From an uncultured delta proteobacterium (GTDB lineage: Bacteria > Myxococcota_A > Polyangia > Polyangiales > Polyangiaceae): 64,000 bases of DNA. The position numbers and the translations under genes were made by a program. Shown one piece after another: positions 1-9,085 of this stretch. The notes below the pieces were generated by a model. That model was not told the DNA's origin and made no database searches. It saw only the letters and a list, made by a program, of their open reading frames with translations. The DNA is taken from NCBI GenBank assembly GCA_963782055.1, contig CAWAIF010000003.1:4320001-4384000 (forward strand), read 5' to 3'. The stretch's first letter is position 1, and every line of letters starts with the position of its first letter.

Positions 1-133
1 AGATGGCCTTCACCGGGCCGGTCACCACGTACTGCGCGGTCTTGTACTTGAGGTGGAGGCGTCCCTTGCGCTCCACGCCGAGGAGCGTCCCGCACTTGCG
101 GCACCGCCACTCCTTGTCGCCTTGCTCGTCCAT
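1..133 (-). CDS. Small Zn-ribbon protein, Mu Com-like (runs off the window edge)
   Basis: Manual translation MDEQGDKEWRCRKCGTLLGVERKGRLHLKYK...; CxxC-x2-LL motif; GAGGAG RBS upstream; too short for the ORF track. Confidence 0.6.
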   Translation of the reverse strand, partial: MDEQGDKEWRCRKCGTLLGVERKGRLHLKYKTAQYVVTGPVKAI

Positions 134-362
134 CGCTGGTCTCCTCGCGGCGGCGTTGTTGCCGTCGACGAGAGGCAGTCTCCGGATCGGGAGGGACGAC
201 GGAGGGTGATGGGAGGGCGAAGCGAGGACGCGCTACAATCTCACTTCGGCAGCTTTTACCGTGGAGTTCTAGGCGGTTCCACGCGTCGTTGCCCGAGGCA
301 ACAGACCGGCAACCAGACCGACCCTTGCGCGGGTGCCTGCGGCGACACATCTATTGACGTGC

Positions 363-1067
363 GTGATTGAGCTTACCCCTTTTCGTGACCGCCTGCGGGA
401 GATCCTGGCGGAGAAGCATCCTGGCGAGGGCGCCCAAGCCTGGCTCGCGAGGGCCTCGGGCGCGGAGCGATCGACGATCTCGCGCATCCTCCAGGGCCGC
501 GTGCCGTCGCGCGAGACGCTCGATCTGATCGCTCCCGTACTCGGGATCACGGTCGACGAGCTCGTCGACGGGACGGAGGCGGCGGCGAAGACAAAGATGG
601 GGCCCGAGTTCGTTCCGAACGAGCACTACACGGGCGCCGTCGCGAAGATGCTGGAGTTCGAGCGACGCGCCAACGACGCCGAGGCGCTTGCGCGCCAACA
701 CGCGCGCACTGGCGCCGAGGAGCTCGAGCGTCGTCATCGCGCGGAAGACCAAGTGGCGTCGCTCGAGCGCGATAACCGCGAGATTCGCGATGACGTCGCG
801 AAGGGTCAGAGCGAGATCTCGCATCTGCACCACCGCGTTCGCCGCCGAACGGAAGCGCTCGAGAAAGCGGTGAAGGAGCTGAACGAACTTCGCGCGCGCG
901 TCGCCGAGCTGAGGGCGATCGCGGAGGACGGACAGAAGACGGGGCGCATCGCCGCCATCCTGGCTGCCGTCGCCGCCTTCACTGGCGTCGTTACTGTCGC
1001 GACCTACCTCGGGAGAGACGATGACGACGATGAGGATGACAAAGACGCCGAAGGGAGCGCGAAGTGA
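363..1067 (+). CDS. XRE-family HTH protein with long coiled coil, C-terminal TM helix and acidic tail
   Basis: QAWLARASGAERSTISRILQG..PSRETLDLIAPVLGITVDELV (XRE HTH); heptad-rich middle; IAAILAAVAAFTGVVTVATYL hydrophobic segment; DDDDDEDD tail. Start uncertain (333 or 363). Confidence 0.8.
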   Translation: MIELTPFRDRLREILAEKHPGEGAQAWLARASGAERSTISRILQGRVPSRETLDLIAPVLGITVDELVDGTEAAAKTKMGPEFVPNEHYTGAVAKMLEFERRANDAEALARQHARTGAEELERRHRAEDQVASLERDNREIRDDVAKGQSEISHLHHRVRRRTEALEKAVKELNELRARVAELRAIAEDGQKTGRIAAILAAVAAFTGVVTVATYLGRDDDDDEDDKDAEGSAK

Positions 1068-1855
1068 CGACGCTGAAGAAACTGCGGAAGTGGTTGCAGG
1101 AGACGCCGAGCGAAGTGCCCGCGGAGCTCGCGATGGCTGGTATGACGGTTGAACACGTCGGCGGGCTCGCGGACGCGCTGGAGGCCGAGGAGAGCAAGCC
1201 GCCGTGTATCGCCCTGATCGGCGAGACGGGCGTCGGCAAGACGTCGACCATCAACGCGCTGTTCGGGAAAGGCCTCGACGTGAGCCACGCGCGCGCGTGC
1301 ACGCAGATCGAGACCGAGATCATCGGGGAGCGCGGGCAGCCGGTGCGCGTGTTCGACATGCCCGGGCTCGGCGAAGATCTCGACGTCGACGAAAGGCACT
1401 TCGAGACCTACAGGCGCGTCCTCCCCGACGTTGACGCGGTCGTGTGGATCTTGAAGGCCGACAACCGCGCGATGACCAACGTGCAGCGCTCGCTCGGTCG
1501 GCTCGTCAAGGAGAACATCCTCGACCCCAGTAAGTTGGTCATCGCCCTTAATCAGGTCGATCTCGTCCAGCCTGGCGACTGGGATCGGCAGATCAATCTG
1601 CCGTCGCCCGAACAGGAGCTCACGATCGCGAAGCGACGCGACGATGTGCTGGAGAAGACCCGGAAGGTAGTGAAGCTGCCGGAGCGACACGTCGTCGCGT
1701 ATTCGGCGCGCACGTTCTTCAACCTGGATGCCCTACTCGAAGCGCTGCTCGACGCGTGCGACGAGACCCGGCGCTGGATGCTTCACGACCGCGCACGTTG
1801 CGCAGATTTCAATTCGCTCGTCGACCTCTCGTTGGCGAGCGCGGAGGCGGAGTAA
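1064..1855 (+). CDS. TRAFAC GTPase, YfjP/YeeP/YkfA-like (MMR_HSR1-type)
   Basis: G1 GETGVGKT, G2 ACT, G3 DMPG, G4-like NQVD, G5 YSA; start overlaps upstream stop (GTGA). Confidence 0.85.
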   Translation: MTTLKKLRKWLQETPSEVPAELAMAGMTVEHVGGLADALEAEESKPPCIALIGETGVGKTSTINALFGKGLDVSHARACTQIETEIIGERGQPVRVFDMPGLGEDLDVDERHFETYRRVLPDVDAVVWILKADNRAMTNVQRSLGRLVKENILDPSKLVIALNQVDLVQPGDWDRQINLPSPEQELTIAKRRDDVLEKTRKVVKLPERHVVAYSARTFFNLDALLEALLDACDETRRWMLHDRARCADFNSLVDLSLASAEAE

Positions 1856-1860
1856 AAACC

Positions 1861-2052
1861 ATGGCTCAGTCATTCACCCAGGAACAAACGGCGCGTCTCG
1901 AGGAAGCCCGCCTGCGCCAACAGCAGACGCGCGACCGCATCGAGTCGATCGCGACGAACTCGATCATGGCGTGGCTCTCGCGCGTCCTCGCGCCGATCGT
2001 CCGCAACGCCGTCCGCGGCGTCGTCGATTGGTTCTGGAAGTTCTTCGGTTAG
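1861..2052 (+). CDS. 63-aa protein with amphipathic Trp/Phe-rich C-terminal helix
   Basis: ATG 5 nt after the GTPase stop with GGAG RBS; MAQSFTQEQ...WLSRVLAPIVRNAVRGVVDWFWKFFG. Confidence 0.7.
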   Translation: MAQSFTQEQTARLEEARLRQQQTRDRIESIATNSIMAWLSRVLAPIVRNAVRGVVDWFWKFFG

Positions 2053-2071: not shown

Positions 2072-3211
2072 TCATGGCCCCACTGGTATCGTGACGGCGA
2101 ACCTGAATTCGGCCGTGGGGTTGAACTGCCACCGCTTCGCCTCTGGCGTGTCGGCGGCGAGCGTGTGGATCGCGCGCCACCTGTAGCGCCCCTGCTTCAC
2201 GTCGACCTTGCTGCGCGCGCGCTCGACGACCTTGTCGATGGCGTTGACGCCGACGCTCGCGAAGTCGCCCGCGCGGAGCGCCTTGCGCGTCGAGATCAGC
2301 TCCACGAGCGCCGCCGCCTCGTGCTTCGTCAGCGCGGTCTCCTCCGCCACGCCGCGGTCGTCGCGTCGTACGCCTCGGTGGCCGCCGCCGTCGACCGTGA
2401 TGGTCGTGTCGATGAAGAGGTCGAGCTCGGCGGCGCGTGCGACGAGCGCCATGTACTCCTCCGCGATGAGGGCGCGACGCCCATCCTGGTCGACGACCAT
2501 GCACATCGGGGAATGCGCGCCGTACGGTTGCCCCGCCGGCTCGCGCAGCGACAGGAGCGGCTCCGGCAGCTCTCCGGCGATGGCGCCGGCTTCGAGCCGG
2601 AGGAGGTCGCGTAGGAGCACGATCTCGGCGCGCTGCCCGAGGCCGAAGCGATCGCGCGCCGCCGTCGCGAGTCCGAGGCCGAAGGGCACGATGACGAGCG
2701 CGTCGCCGCGCGCGGCGGCCCACGCCTCGAAGCCAGGGAACGCGGGCGACAGCGCGAGGAACACGGCACGCCCGGCCCGGTCGCCAATCCTCCGGGCATC
2801 CGGGAAGCCGGCGTCGCCTTGCTCGACCGCGCCGCCCACGCCGAGGGTGCGCCGCAGGACGCGCACCAGGCCGTCCACCGAGAGCTGGAGCGTCTCGCGG
2901 TCCTCTGGGCGCAGGAGGACCTCAGAGCACGAGCCATCGTCGCGCCCGCACACCGCCACGAACGGATGGGATGCGCAGCCATGGTTCGTGACGACGCGAC
3001 GCGGGCACCCGTCGCCCCACGGCCCGCCGCATGGGTGTGAGAGCGTCGCCTCCTTTTCGACGAGCACGCCAAGGCGCACGAGCAGCGTCGTGACCTCGGC
3101 GCCGATCCGTTCGCGCCACTGGGAGGCGAGCAGAGTCGGCGCCTTCGCCTGCTCGACCAGCCGGAGCAGCTCGTCGAGCGGACGACGGGGCGCGTTCCCG
3201 GTCGGCGTCAT
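2072..3211 (-). CDS. Hypothetical protein with Cys cluster and possible C-terminal winged-helix-like region
   Basis: 379-aa ORF with normal composition; C-x6-C...C-x5-C; overlaps upstream stop (ATGA). Confidence 0.7.
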   Translation of the reverse strand: MTPTGNAPRRPLDELLRLVEQAKAPTLLASQWRERIGAEVTTLLVRLGVLVEKEATLSHPCGGPWGDGCPRRVVTNHGCASHPFVAVCGRDDGSCSEVLLRPEDRETLQLSVDGLVRVLRRTLGVGGAVEQGDAGFPDARRIGDRAGRAVFLALSPAFPGFEAWAAARGDALVIVPFGLGLATAARDRFGLGQRAEIVLLRDLLRLEAGAIAGELPEPLLSLREPAGQPYGAHSPMCMVVDQDGRRALIAEEYMALVARAAELDLFIDTTITVDGGGHRGVRRDDRGVAEETALTKHEAAALVELISTRKALRAGDFASVGVNAIDKVVERARSKVDVKQGRYRWRAIHTLAADTPEAKRWQFNPTAEFRFAVTIPVGP

Positions 3212-4398
3212 CGCGCCCCCGCGCCGACCGGCGACGCTTGCGCCGGCATTCGCATGAACCCGCTCTCGAGCAGGTACTCGCGGACGATGTCGCCGCCGAA
3301 GCGCCGGTCGAAGCTCAGATGGTTCGGGACCTGGACGTCGACGCGCACTGCGCGCGGACGCCCGGAGAGCACCAGCGCGAGCTGGAATTGCAGCACGTCC
3401 CCGTAGAGCAGAACGAGACGACCGAGCGGGGTCGCGAGGAGCGGTCCGAGGTCGTTCGCCTTCCAGGTGATCACCCCGCCGCTCGCGAGATCGGACGAGC
3501 CGATCTTCATCTCGCGAAGCACCACGCCAGCGAGCCCTGGGACGCCGTGCGGCTGGAGCGCCGCGCCGCCCTCCTCGGCGAGCGGCTCGCCCGTGAATAC
3601 CGGCTGCGCGACGAAGTGCTCTTCGTCACCCCAGAAGACGCGGCCGAGCACGCGCCGGTAGAAGTCCTGCTCGCCGAAGAACTGCGCGTTCACCGCGAGG
3701 CGCCCGGTGCGCCGATCGAACACGAGGATGTCGTGCTTGTCGGGCACGTACGTCACGCGCGAGCGGCGGTCGTCGCTCTCGATGGCTCCGTGGTTGCGCG
3801 GCGGCCGTCCGTGGATGATGACGAAGCTCACCTCGTCGCCGACCTCGCTCACGCGCACGTCGCAGAACGCTGTGCGATTCCGATCGCGGAACCAAGCGCC
3901 GATGGCGCGCGCGAGCAGAGCGCGCTTCGCGACGCTGTCCTGGCCCGCCAGCGGCGACGCGTCCTTCGCGAAGAACTCCACGAACCGGCGCGCCTCCGTC
4001 GACTGCGTTCGGGCGTGCGCGCTGCGGAAGACGTCGCGGTGATCGAGGTACACCTCGAACGCGAGGTCCTCCGGCGTCGTGCGCGCGTTGACGGTGAAGA
4101 GCCCGAGCTGCTGGCTCTTCGCGATCGACAGCACGTGCTCGTGCGCGCTCTCGGTCGTCAGGTCGGCGACGTCGAGCAGTCCTTGTTGCAGCTCCCCGGG
4201 GAGCTCCGGGTCGACGGCGTTCAGCACCGCGTGCAGCGCCGCGATCCACTCCGTTGCGCAGGCGACGCCGTCGAGCGCGACGCCACGCGACGTGAGGTAG
4301 TCCTCGAAGGGACGAAGAAACCGGATCAGTAGCTCCGGTCGAACGGCCTCGAGCAGGTCGAGGCGAACCAAGTGCGCGGTCAGTGCGACGTGCTGCAT
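3208..4398 (-). CDS. Hypothetical protein of a type seen in recombinase-bearing integrative elements
   Basis: Long ORF; likely start MQHVAL at 4398 after a G-rich RBS. Confidence 0.7.
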   Translation of the reverse strand: MQHVALTAHLVRLDLLEAVRPELLIRFLRPFEDYLTSRGVALDGVACATEWIAALHAVLNAVDPELPGELQQGLLDVADLTTESAHEHVLSIAKSQQLGLFTVNARTTPEDLAFEVYLDHRDVFRSAHARTQSTEARRFVEFFAKDASPLAGQDSVAKRALLARAIGAWFRDRNRTAFCDVRVSEVGDEVSFVIIHGRPPRNHGAIESDDRRSRVTYVPDKHDILVFDRRTGRLAVNAQFFGEQDFYRRVLGRVFWGDEEHFVAQPVFTGEPLAEEGGAALQPHGVPGLAGVVLREMKIGSSDLASGGVITWKANDLGPLLATPLGRLVLLYGDVLQFQLALVLSGRPRAVRVDVQVPNHLSFDRRFGGDIVREYLLESGFMRMPAQASPVGAGAR

Positions 4399-4411
4399 CC
4401 CCCCGCTCCGC

Positions 4412-4594
4412 TCAGCGATCGCGCAGACGCGCTTGGGGACGAACCTCCTGGGCGAAGGCGGCGAGTACGGCCGCGGGGAACGGCGCCGCATGGCACCGCG
4501 AGACTGCGCGATCGGCAGTCGCTCGAGGGGTGAGCTCAGCGAGTTCTTGGATCGGGACCTTGGGGCGCTTCTTCTGGAACGTTTTCGTGCTCAT
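4412..4594 (-). CDS. Small basic protein, first gene of the operon
   Basis: GGAGG RBS then MSTKTFQKKRPK...; ends 13 nt before the next start. Confidence 0.45.
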   Translation of the reverse strand: MSTKTFQKKRPKVPIQELAELTPRATADRAVSRCHAAPFPAAVLAAFAQEVRPQARLRDR

Positions 4595-8289: not shown

Positions 8290-9085
8290 TGGCGCCGTCG
8301 GGACGACGACCGGCGTACACGGGGTTCTGCAGGAGACGCAGAACGGCGCGCGCCGACCACTCGCCTCGCTTGCCGTTCTTCGCGACAAGCCGCAGCGCGT
8401 TCGCTCGCGCCACGAGCTCGGCGGTCGACTTGCCGCTCCCGGCCGCCGTGAAGAACCAACGCACAACGGCTGCCTCCGACTCGACGATGACGAGCTGCTT
8501 CGTCTTCGGATCTGCGGCGTAGCCAAGAGGCACGCGACCCGCGGCGCGTTCTCCGCGGGCCTTCTTCGCGGCGCGCGCGTCGGCCAGGCGCTCGCCGATC
8601 ATGTCGCGCTCCAGCTCGGCGAAGGTCGCGAGCAGGTTGAGCTGCAGCCGCGCGAGGGAGCCGGCCTCGGCGTCGATGGCGCCGTGCACGATGGTGAGGC
8701 CGACGTTGAACCGCTCGAACACCCGCGCGAACAACGCCCAGTCGGTGAGCTTCCGCGTGAGGCGATCGAGCCGGTAGACGATGACGCGCTGGATGTCGCC
8801 GTCCTGGATGCGCGCGATGAGTCTCTCGAGGCCCGGACGCTCGATGGTCGCGCCGCTGTAGCCCTCGTCGTCGAAGCGCTCGCCGATCGGGTACCAGCCG
8901 CGCCAGGCCATGGAGCGGATGAACTCAGTGCAGAGGGTGCGCTGCACCGCGCAGACGCGAGGGCGGGATCGTCCCCGGCGCGCACCACCGACTGGCGCGT
9001 GTACACGGCGCAGCGGATGAGGGGCAGGTCGTCGGGCTCGGTGTCCAAGTTCGTGAAGATATCGCGGGCGGACGGGAGCGGGATG
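8290..9085 (-). pseudogene. Large serine recombinase, frameshifted (~8955) and 3'-truncated
   Basis: RCAVYTRQS in one frame; DDEGYSGATIERPGL..VYRLDRLTR..FAELERDMIGER..PLGY..LLQNPVYAG in another. Confidence 0.85.

Follow-up and report, generated by a model that had tools for sequence, protein, structure and literature searches.

The window examined here is a stretch of 64,000 nucleotides from an uncultured delta proteobacterium of the Polyangiaceae (contig CAWAIF010000003.1, positions 4,320,001 to 4,384,000), and near its left end three tightly coupled open reading frames (ORFs) lie on the forward strand. ORF1 (363..1067) encodes 234 amino acids comprising an XRE helix-turn-helix, a 108-residue coiled-coil helix, an Ala/Gly-rich hydrophobic helix and a variable tail; ORF2 (1064..1855) encodes a 263-amino-acid TRAFAC GTPase with intact G1–G5 motifs and short N- and C-terminal helices; and ORF3 (1861..2052) encodes a 63-amino-acid helical partner, a predicted ORF2 binder from an unannotated family. 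ORF1 and ORF2 overlap at GTGA, a 5-nucleotide gap separates ORF2 from ORF3 and all three frames are open, which confirms the coordinates and frames of the intact trio described in an earlier sequence-only reading of this DNA. Upstream lies a palindrome, GTTGCC-N3-GGCAAC (288..302, no strand assigned), that is a candidate operator for an ORF1 repressor, with a further half-site at 308–313. Taken as a whole, the analysis identifies ORF2 and ORF3 as a genuine two-gene GTPase module, so far undescribed, that has borrowed its repressor.

The pairing of ORF2 with ORF3 is conserved. Among 1.84 billion representative sequences, six small-protein homologues of ORF3 were found (one match to a repeat protein was set aside), and their existence confirms ORF3 as a gene; the copies in L003 and L007, two of the loci that we compared, differ by 5 synonymous and 3 non-synonymous codon changes. 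No Pfam or PHROG match and no usable Atlas match was found for ORF3, and in the Atlas ORF2 falls only into generic GTPase clusters. The ORF3 family has an amphipathic C-terminal half and an invariant S34 inside the motif S-Φ-x-x-W/F, its most conserved residues being R12, S34, W38 and F62. In ORF3 itself the best 18-residue hydrophobic moment is 0.70, a value matched by 24 of 1000 shuffles, so the amphipathic helix first noted in this 63-residue protein is borne out. The DNA context of the GTPase subfamily was compared at 18 other loci (L003–L008, L010–L015, L034, L037, L038, L055, L056 and L082; L015 apart, all are at least 37% identical to ORF2). At 17 of them, spread over several phyla, a gene for a helical partner of 60–95 amino acids adjoins the GTPase; the exception, L006, has a GTPase broken off after residue 213 and no partner gene. 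A profile built from 9 of the 17 partner genes, with 8 outside the training set, recovered 7 non-training loci (E 1e-24 to 0.025), and the frameshifted partner gene of L004 was recovered by tblastn. Among the loci then available, all 30 profile matches lie at GTPase loci, the loci having been chosen by GTPase or ORF1, and the window's own genome gave one match. More distant GTPases (L058, L083, L081), the unpublished G1449 and weak partial matches (L009, L018–L032) are not used in these counts; the latter gave no partner-profile match. The expectation that both neighbours would accompany GTPase homologues therefore holds for the ORF3-type gene and fails for ORF1, which lies upstream of the GTPase at 4 of the 18 loci (L003, L007, L004 and L056; three of the other 14 offer fewer than 650 nucleotides of upstream sequence). 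Judged by gene content, the conserved core is ORF2 plus ORF3, and the trio is not an obligatory three-part machine.

The partner family also appears in other arrangements. Behind the partner gene in L011:1625-2032 and L012:1787-2218 is a cysteine-rich, zinc-finger-like protein with the partner motif at its end (profile E ~0.001), possibly a sensor fusion. In P0128 the addiction-module antitoxin domain PF09720 is fused to partner-like sequence, which is either a real fusion or an artefact of gene calling. L015:5444-8169 combines a TerB gene, a 61-amino-acid gene, a tail-less GTPase, a permuted GTPase with its G4–G5 half ahead of G1–G3, and three tandem partners, and L019 likewise has TerB with a similar double GTPase arrangement. 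One 22-residue ORF3 match, in L084, was dismissed as chance; it falls in an unrelated frame and has no GTPase close by.

Structure prediction suggests that the two products belong together physically. ESMFold2 places ORF2 and ORF3 in a complex with an interface score (ipSAE, interaction prediction score from aligned errors) of 0.87, whereas the best of three controls scored 0.01; the mark applied to this score is reached by 116 of 157 solved complexes and by 2 of 215 mismatched pairs, counts that calibrate only roughly here because our own alignments and a GTP/Mg ligand were used. Contact agreement between runs was at least 90%, and the partner's predicted local distance difference test (pLDDT) value was at least 83. 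In the model, ORF3 runs along the post-G5 helix 222–230, helix 234–242 and the N-terminal helices 2–42 of the GTPase, and the predicted interface has no contacts at residues 43–173, that is, it lies away from G1–G3. S34 of ORF3 contacts R237/W238 of the GTPase, and R12, S34, W38 and F62 are all within the interface. W238 is present in 16 of 16 partnered full-length GTPases and in 0 of 14 unpartnered ones, a pattern that tracks clades. Since no solved structure of the family is among the matches listed, recall of a similar complex by the predictor is less likely. On the strength of the model, ORF2 and ORF3 probably form a complex. Of the 17 large hydrophobic residues in ORF3 residues 30–63, 13 are in the interface, with M36, V51, V55 and W59 outside it. 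With its hydrophobic face buried in this way, ORF3 has the appearance of a helix built into the GTPase structure, at least in the resting state, and its original description as a free membrane-disrupting peptide becomes doubtful.

ORF2 itself is a clear member of the TRAFAC class, with intact G1–G5 motifs and a G-domain fold. It matches Pfam MMR_HSR1 (E 5e-12; 46 bits against a cut-off of 21.9), and its motifs lie at residues 53–60 (G1), T80 (G2), 98–101 (G3), 163–166 (G4, NQVD) and 213–215 (G5). G53, G58, K59, T80, D98, G101, N163 and D166 are invariant in 76 aligned sequences (the query plus 75 of the 120 homologues listed), in agreement with the complete motif set reported before. The AlphaFold2 (AF2) model has a pLDDT of 88.7. 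Its best structural Z score is to EngB (17.1; root-mean-square deviation (rmsd) 2.8, 163 residues), which covers the G domain only and ties with LeoA within the method's spread. The matches that span the N-terminal helices are to LeoA (Z 16.2, rmsd 5.5, 223 residues), the bacterial dynamin-like protein BDLP (Z 15.4, rmsd 5.6, 216 residues) and mitofusin 2 (Z 14.8, rmsd 6.0, 220 residues), and those to IniA, EHD4 and SynDLP also take in these helices; for LeoA, BDLP, mitofusin 2, IniA and SynDLP the alignment runs from residue 1–4 to residue 236–239, with Z of 13–16 and rmsd of 4.9–6.9. Among the matches listed, the top Foldseek query template-modelling (TM) scores, 0.56–0.62, belong to the immunity-related GTPases (IRGs), and the profile match to Irgb10 (positions 18–237, E 1.3e-12) covers the longest stretch. 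By this modelling, the fold appears to run along the LeoA/BDLP neck and the IRG helical domain, and it is on the helices superposed on this neck that the predicted complex places ORF3.

It is useful to consider this GTPase in light of its relationship to the YfjP/YkfA proteins of E. coli. ORF2 and YkfA share 33% identity over 136 residues (E 1e-19), with similarity across G1–G4, which upholds its assignment as a YfjP-related GTPase, and enterobacterial YfjP-type copies are ~30% identical over ORF2 residues 8–217. The two groups share ACT at G2, Q in G4, short N-terminal helices, an amphipathic C-terminal element and carriage on mobile islands. YeeP is a further GTPase of this kind, and all three belong to CP4 cryptic prophages of E. 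coli K-12. The closest named relatives of ORF2 are from Myxococcota. In a 32-row tree, in which the deeper order is not settled, the window and L003, L007, L004 and L056 form a trio clade (support 100/96), and a seven-row YkfA/YfjP clade (100/98) leaves out ORF2; L005 and L055 carry only the ORF2–ORF3 pair, with no ORF1. The phylogeny suggests that the ORF2 lineage is a sister of YfjP/YkfA, in a separate supported clade, and W238 is absent from YkfA/YfjP. The amphipathic tail of YfjP/YkfA is in the same chain, which continues for 91 residues after G5, in contrast to 49 in ORF2 and 48–52 in the trio clade and its sister, where a separate partner gene is present. It is tempting to see ORF3 as the split-off YfjP tail. 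By hhalign the comparison with that tail gave probabilities of 3.4% and 3.9%, and the score of 15.6 exceeded 60 of 60 column shuffles, with a reversed control at 15.1; homology is therefore not detectable by profile comparison. Furthermore, 6 of the 16 partnered GTPases retain 75–138 residues after G5, so the tail-or-partner pattern is not strict, and for both reasons the split-tail idea is something that we only infer. The window's genome holds one other tblastn match to the GTPase (27%), 1.46 Mb distant.

Several relatives of these GTPases were seen in settings of their own. A more distant clade contains a tailed and a tail-less GTPase as a pair (L017:120-5315; L054:1-7516; L052:2438-4151), which lies beside viperin-like genes in L017 and inside a type I restriction-modification (RM) operon in L054. 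Small mobilisable E. coli plasmids of 4.8 and 5.9 kb carry a tailed YfjP-like GTPase (L040:506-1387; L041:387-2778) as the only cargo gene or alongside EcsC and a cysteine-rich protein, and would be handy for testing the family's function. L058:4062-7633 (G654), more distant from ORF2, has three tandem GTPase genes with glycine-rich hydrophobic tails.

The third gene, ORF1, seems to be separable from the other two. Residues 11–68 match Pfam HTH_26/HTH_3 above the cut-off and there are PHROG repressor matches; residues 86–193 form a single unbroken helix in the AF2 model; and residues 196–214 are a 19-residue hydrophobic stretch (Kyte-Doolittle mean 2.24; AF2 confidence there ~60) that is kept among homologues. 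The proposed order of helix-turn-helix, coiled coil and hydrophobic C-terminal helix is thus correct, and the poly-Asp tail is present here as an acidic tail that is not conserved, being missing in L004, L056 and P0139. A profile search found ORF1 at nine other loci after removal of duplicates, and at seven of these the GTPase and partner are absent (for three of the seven the contig is short and extends 2 kb or more downstream). L074 represents the same slot of the element, its flanking genes being 47–73% identical to those of the window, and in it a 35% identical ORF1 is followed by an unrelated 107-amino-acid gene; other copies head a transglutaminase-like gene, an 88-amino-acid gene or a PDC-M51A radical SAM gene. 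Likewise, the palindrome recurs with ORF1. The 288–302 site is the sole match to GTTGCC-N2..3-GGCAAC in the 7.58-Mb genome, and the shorter form TTGCC-N1..3-GGCAA lies within 200 nucleotides upstream in 8 of 12 ORF1-family loci, including 4 of the 8 that were not used for motif discovery, against a genome background of 10 sites (0.00026 per 200 nucleotides); it was not found upstream of the ORF1-less GTPases in L005, L055 and L082. A sigma-70 promoter scan gave 0 sites, and the 1 terminator-like site is at chance level. Given ORF1 copies without the GTPase, different cargo in the same slot and a recurrent palindrome, ORF1 is most likely an autorepressor heading interchangeable cargo and not a membrane sensor, and the earlier view of it as sensor or scaffold for the GTPase is not supported. 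Its coiled coil and hydrophobic helix may serve in oligomerisation, membrane tethering or sensing. In phage lambda the cI repressor likewise heads cargo, as in cI-rexAB. The nearest parallel among defence systems is with CapH-type repressors, which share an XRE domain heading an operon, a divergent small gene and a palindromic site (PADLOC capH match, weak, E 0.018); ORF1 differs in having the 108-residue coiled coil and hydrophobic helix instead of a peptidase or CapH C-terminal domain, and no CapP or WYL partner is seen at the trio locus.

The XRE-coiled-coil-hydrophobic-helix proteins (window 363-1067; L070-L076; L006:1401-2153) are an unannotated family heading variable cargo in myxobacterial islands, and the genes behind them are further defence candidates (L074:2091-2414, L075:8014-8277, L072:8676-9197 and L006:1038-1397).

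None of the named systems compared has the architecture of the trio, as the sequence-only reading had proposed. PADLOC 2.0 gave no full-length match for any of its components, only partial G-domain matches for ORF2 and matches of E 0.002 or weaker for ORF1 and ORF3. The likeness to Eleos lies in the matches of ORF2 to LeoA (E 1.7e-9) and LeoBC (E 2.8e-7), the structural match to LeoA over residues 2–239 and the defence-island neighbours. However, Eleos (Millman et al., 10.1101/2022.05.11.491447) has two large dynamin-like proteins, LeoA and LeoBC, encoded by consecutive genes of which the first may be split, where this island has one 263-residue GTPase with no stalk in its chain; the PADLOC matches cover 150 of 559 and 160 of 601 profile positions, in the G domain only, and the NCBIfam LeoA score is 16 against a cut-off of 325. 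With one short GTPase and matches confined to the G domain, the module is not Eleos. Bacterial dynamin-like proteins more generally have a long stalk and a lipid-binding paddle, whereas in ORF2 the G domain is followed by nothing longer than short helices. The IRGs (Irgb10, Irga6, Irgb6 and GM4951) are 17–19% identical to ORF2 at the TM scores given above, and amphipathic C-terminal helices let them reach target membranes (PMC6925386); they are eukaryotic, ~410 residues long and in one chain, in contrast to the shorter chain and separately encoded amphipathic helix found here. The IRG likeness is a working analogy, not family membership. A description of the ORF2–ORF3 pair was not found in the literature searched, which lies outside subscription journals and bioRxiv supplementary candidate tables that may list it, and that literature gave no function for YfjP/YkfA. 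In the available portions of the sources, yfjP appears only as a row of a transposon screen (PMC13031359), is not named in a 2026 survey of NTPases in immunity (10.64898/2026.10.19.760177), and no relevant GTPase text occurs in two other preprints (10.1101/2025.02.28.640651, 10.1101/2024.03.22.586370).

The reading that we favour, with a probability of roughly 0.42, is that the locus is an operon for a minimal, split dynamin/IRG-like GTPase that defends the cell at the membrane under repression by ORF1, where both the defence role and the action on membranes are argued by analogy. Of these parts, the membrane as target is reasonably probable, and defence as the role is slightly favoured. In favour of the reading are the partner gene at 17 of 18 GTPase loci, the predicted complex with its contact between S34 and R237/W238, the structural matches to dynamins and IRGs, the defence genes close to several loci, and the rare and patchy distribution of the GTPase (2 of 401, 3 of 251, 2 of 250, 3 of 251 and 5 of 280 genomes, with the centre genome counted each time). 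ORF1 would repress its own promoter through the upstream palindrome. ORF2 and ORF3 would be one heterodimeric enzyme, a minimal dynamin/IRG-like GTPase in which ORF3 supplies the long C-terminal helical element as a separate polypeptide packed on the post-G5 and N-terminal helices. Derepression or infection could then lead to GTP binding and G-domain pairing of ORF2, and the helical bundle, with the exposed W59, V55 and V51 of ORF3 and its basic residues, would engage the inner membrane; coating or damage of this membrane might limit a phage or other invading element. The analogy is drawn because amphipathic C-terminal helices are needed for membrane loading of Irgb6 (PMC6925386) and because defence by a two-gene dynamin system requires both P-loops (10.1101/2022.05.11.491447).

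A number of observations weigh against this proposal. The best structural Z is to EngB, the rmsd to dynamins is 5–6 Å, W238 follows clades and the YfjP tail is not detectably homologous to ORF3. With most of the hydrophobic face of ORF3 buried, its amphipathicity alone does not establish membrane binding. The neighbourhoods are mixed as well. No strong defence match was found among the flank proteins scanned or read at L005, L034, L055 and L056; the neighbours of L056, L055 and L005 are only toxin-antitoxin, integrase or insertion-sequence genes; L008, L034 and L038 are surrounded by ordinary genes; 3 of the 7 ORF1-only loci also have defence neighbours; and L003 and L007 belong to one genome and are kin, not independent.

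These last points bear most on the possibility that the module is a non-defence accessory of mobile elements, acting in exclusion of related elements, element upkeep or envelope stress, as may YfjP/YkfA on CP4; we consider this unlikely, and it is the alternative that survives best. Relatives are found on integrative elements and plasmids, L055 adjoins a primase-like gene and an integrase, and a number of partnered loci are without defence neighbours; such islands are rich in defence genes anyway, and these occur at ORF1-only loci as well. Against this, the pair is not tied to a single element type. No two loci share the same flanks, yet at two of them a named defence system is the immediate neighbour: Mokosh type I begins 37 nucleotides downstream of the partner gene in L003, and a cyclic-oligonucleotide-based antiphage signalling system (CBASS) lies directly upstream in L007. 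Distant relatives, moreover, sit within a type I RM operon and beside viperins. Of the nine Myxococcota loci with flanks (window, L003, L004, L005, L007, L034, L055, L056 and L082; the broken L006 is not counted), strong PADLOC matches occur within ~7 kb at five, a raw count with no background rate beside it. Besides the two just named, these are CBASS and LmuA-like neighbours in L004, CBASS III with HORMA and TRIP13 in L082, and, in the island of the window itself, SoFic, a type IIG RM gene and a Druantia-E-like helicase. The defence-island neighbours predicted from the sequence are thus present; given the raw count, the kinship of L003 and L007 and the defence genes at ORF1-only loci, they may reflect general island life. 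An origin in phages was considered and set aside, as the GTPase has no relative in IMG/VR or INPHARED and ORF1 none in IMG/VR.

Two further features were seen next to the trio in the genome shared by L003 and L007. In L007:7060-7300 the Mokosh kinase-helicase gene behind the intact trio is cut short, unlike the copy in L003, and in L003:1456-5099 a divergent operon beside the trio encodes a 185-amino-acid protein and QatC-like, RmrA-like and PDC-S70-like proteins, not a complete named system.

It is also worth considering that ORF3 might be a held toxin, a membrane-damaging peptide sequestered by the GTPase and released once its nucleotide state shifts, in response to a phage trigger or to falling GTP, so that the infected cell is killed. 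The buried hydrophobic face in the model would suit such an antitoxin-like arrangement, L006 is the only locus with a broken GTPase and is also without a partner gene, and the partner occurs as tandem paralogues in L014 (two) and L015 (three). However, the residues most conserved in ORF3 are without exception interface residues in the model, as would fit a fixed subunit, and across the family the last 29 residues carry charges anywhere between −7 and +4, unlike a conserved cationic lytic peptide. We regard this alternative as doubtful. More improbable by far is a three-part system in which ORF1, as a membrane-anchored scaffold or sensor or as the missing dynamin stalk and paddle, works physically with the GTPase and peptide. 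The five trio loci do form one clade that moved jointly into different flanks, ORF1 is 56% identical to the L003 copy compared with 35% to that of L074 in the same slot, the genes are translationally coupled and the hydrophobic helix is conserved; nonetheless ORF1 is missing at 14 of 18 GTPase loci, the GTPase is missing at 7 of 9 ORF1 loci, relatives of ORF1 head unrelated cargo, and its palindrome is operator-like. Equally improbable is a role for ORF3 as a regulator resembling a guanine nucleotide dissociation inhibitor or GTPase-activating protein, acting on a soluble GTPase with a non-membrane target such as the ribosome, as for Era/EngB-type proteins: Der and Era are the top sequence matches among solved structures and EngB has the top Z, but these matches cover the G domain only, there is no KH domain, the interface lies away from G1–G3 and the gene is patchy, not housekeeping.

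Turning to the element that carries it, the trio is best read as a cargo operon of a serine-recombinase integrative element. It lies within a lower-GC stretch of ~40 kb, which begins close to a tRNA-Asn located 25.7 kb upstream and contains a large serine recombinase with DUF2924. ORF1 was found in none of 4 other genomes from its genus, and with the patchy occurrence of the GTPase this marks the trio as mobile accessory cargo. The terminal 14–40 nucleotides of the tRNA occur once on the contig, giving no attachment repeat, and the right end of the island is therefore not fixed. Divergent from ORF1 is a zinc-ribbon gene of the host element (1..133, reverse strand), presumably Com-like, which continues beyond the window edge and shares 70% identity with its positional counterpart in L074, a homologue with weak zinc-ribbon Pfam matches. 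Convergent on ORF3 are two unannotated core genes on the reverse strand (2072-3211 and 3208-4491; 379 and 427 amino acids), which share 60% and 73% identity with L074 genes that are ordered alike and have no match in Pfam, PADLOC, NCBIfam or PHROG. Also in the stretch are a Druantia-E-like helicase, a split SNF2 helicase, a type IIG RM gene, an LmuB-like protein, an HNH nuclease, PDC-S02 and SoFic. The statement that most other island genes are broken goes too far. It applies to a recombinase fragment near 8300–8950 and to the SNF2 helicase, which is divided between two ORFs, but the frames of the main recombinase, the SoFic-like gene and the two genes next downstream of the trio are complete. 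Contig pieces from four DNA runs are short (one spans ORF1–ORF2 and one ORF2–ORF3) and are not used as support. Upstream of the window, L001:1903-14723 is a DISARM/Dpd/Druantia-related cluster, with a type IIG RM gene, the SNF2 helicase as two ORFs and an 1845-amino-acid Druantia-E-like helicase in which the MrfA zinc domain is present.

YfjP-type GTPases are common island cargo, and in this lineage their helical part, which may face the membrane, comes to light as a 63-amino-acid gene. As that part is a separate gene with a confidently predicted interface, the GTPase, partner and regulator can each be tested separately. The repressor family and its candidate operator, for their part, could serve as bait for more defence candidates in myxobacteria. 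A more ambitious proposal, which we hold to be possible at best, is that ORF2 and ORF3 are the smallest bacterial counterpart of the IRG/dynamin immune GTPases, in which an exchangeable helical subunit, occurring singly, as tandem paralogues or as zinc-finger fusions, determines the target and, once GTP is bound, delivers a membrane-active helix. If true, this would establish a so far unnamed antiphage family that spans Myxococcota, Acidobacteriota and Cyanobacteriota, and the yfjP and ykfA genes of E. coli would gain a testable function. If the module protects against phage, it would add a minimal two-chain form to the immune GTPases of animals (IRG, Mx) and bacteria (Eleos).

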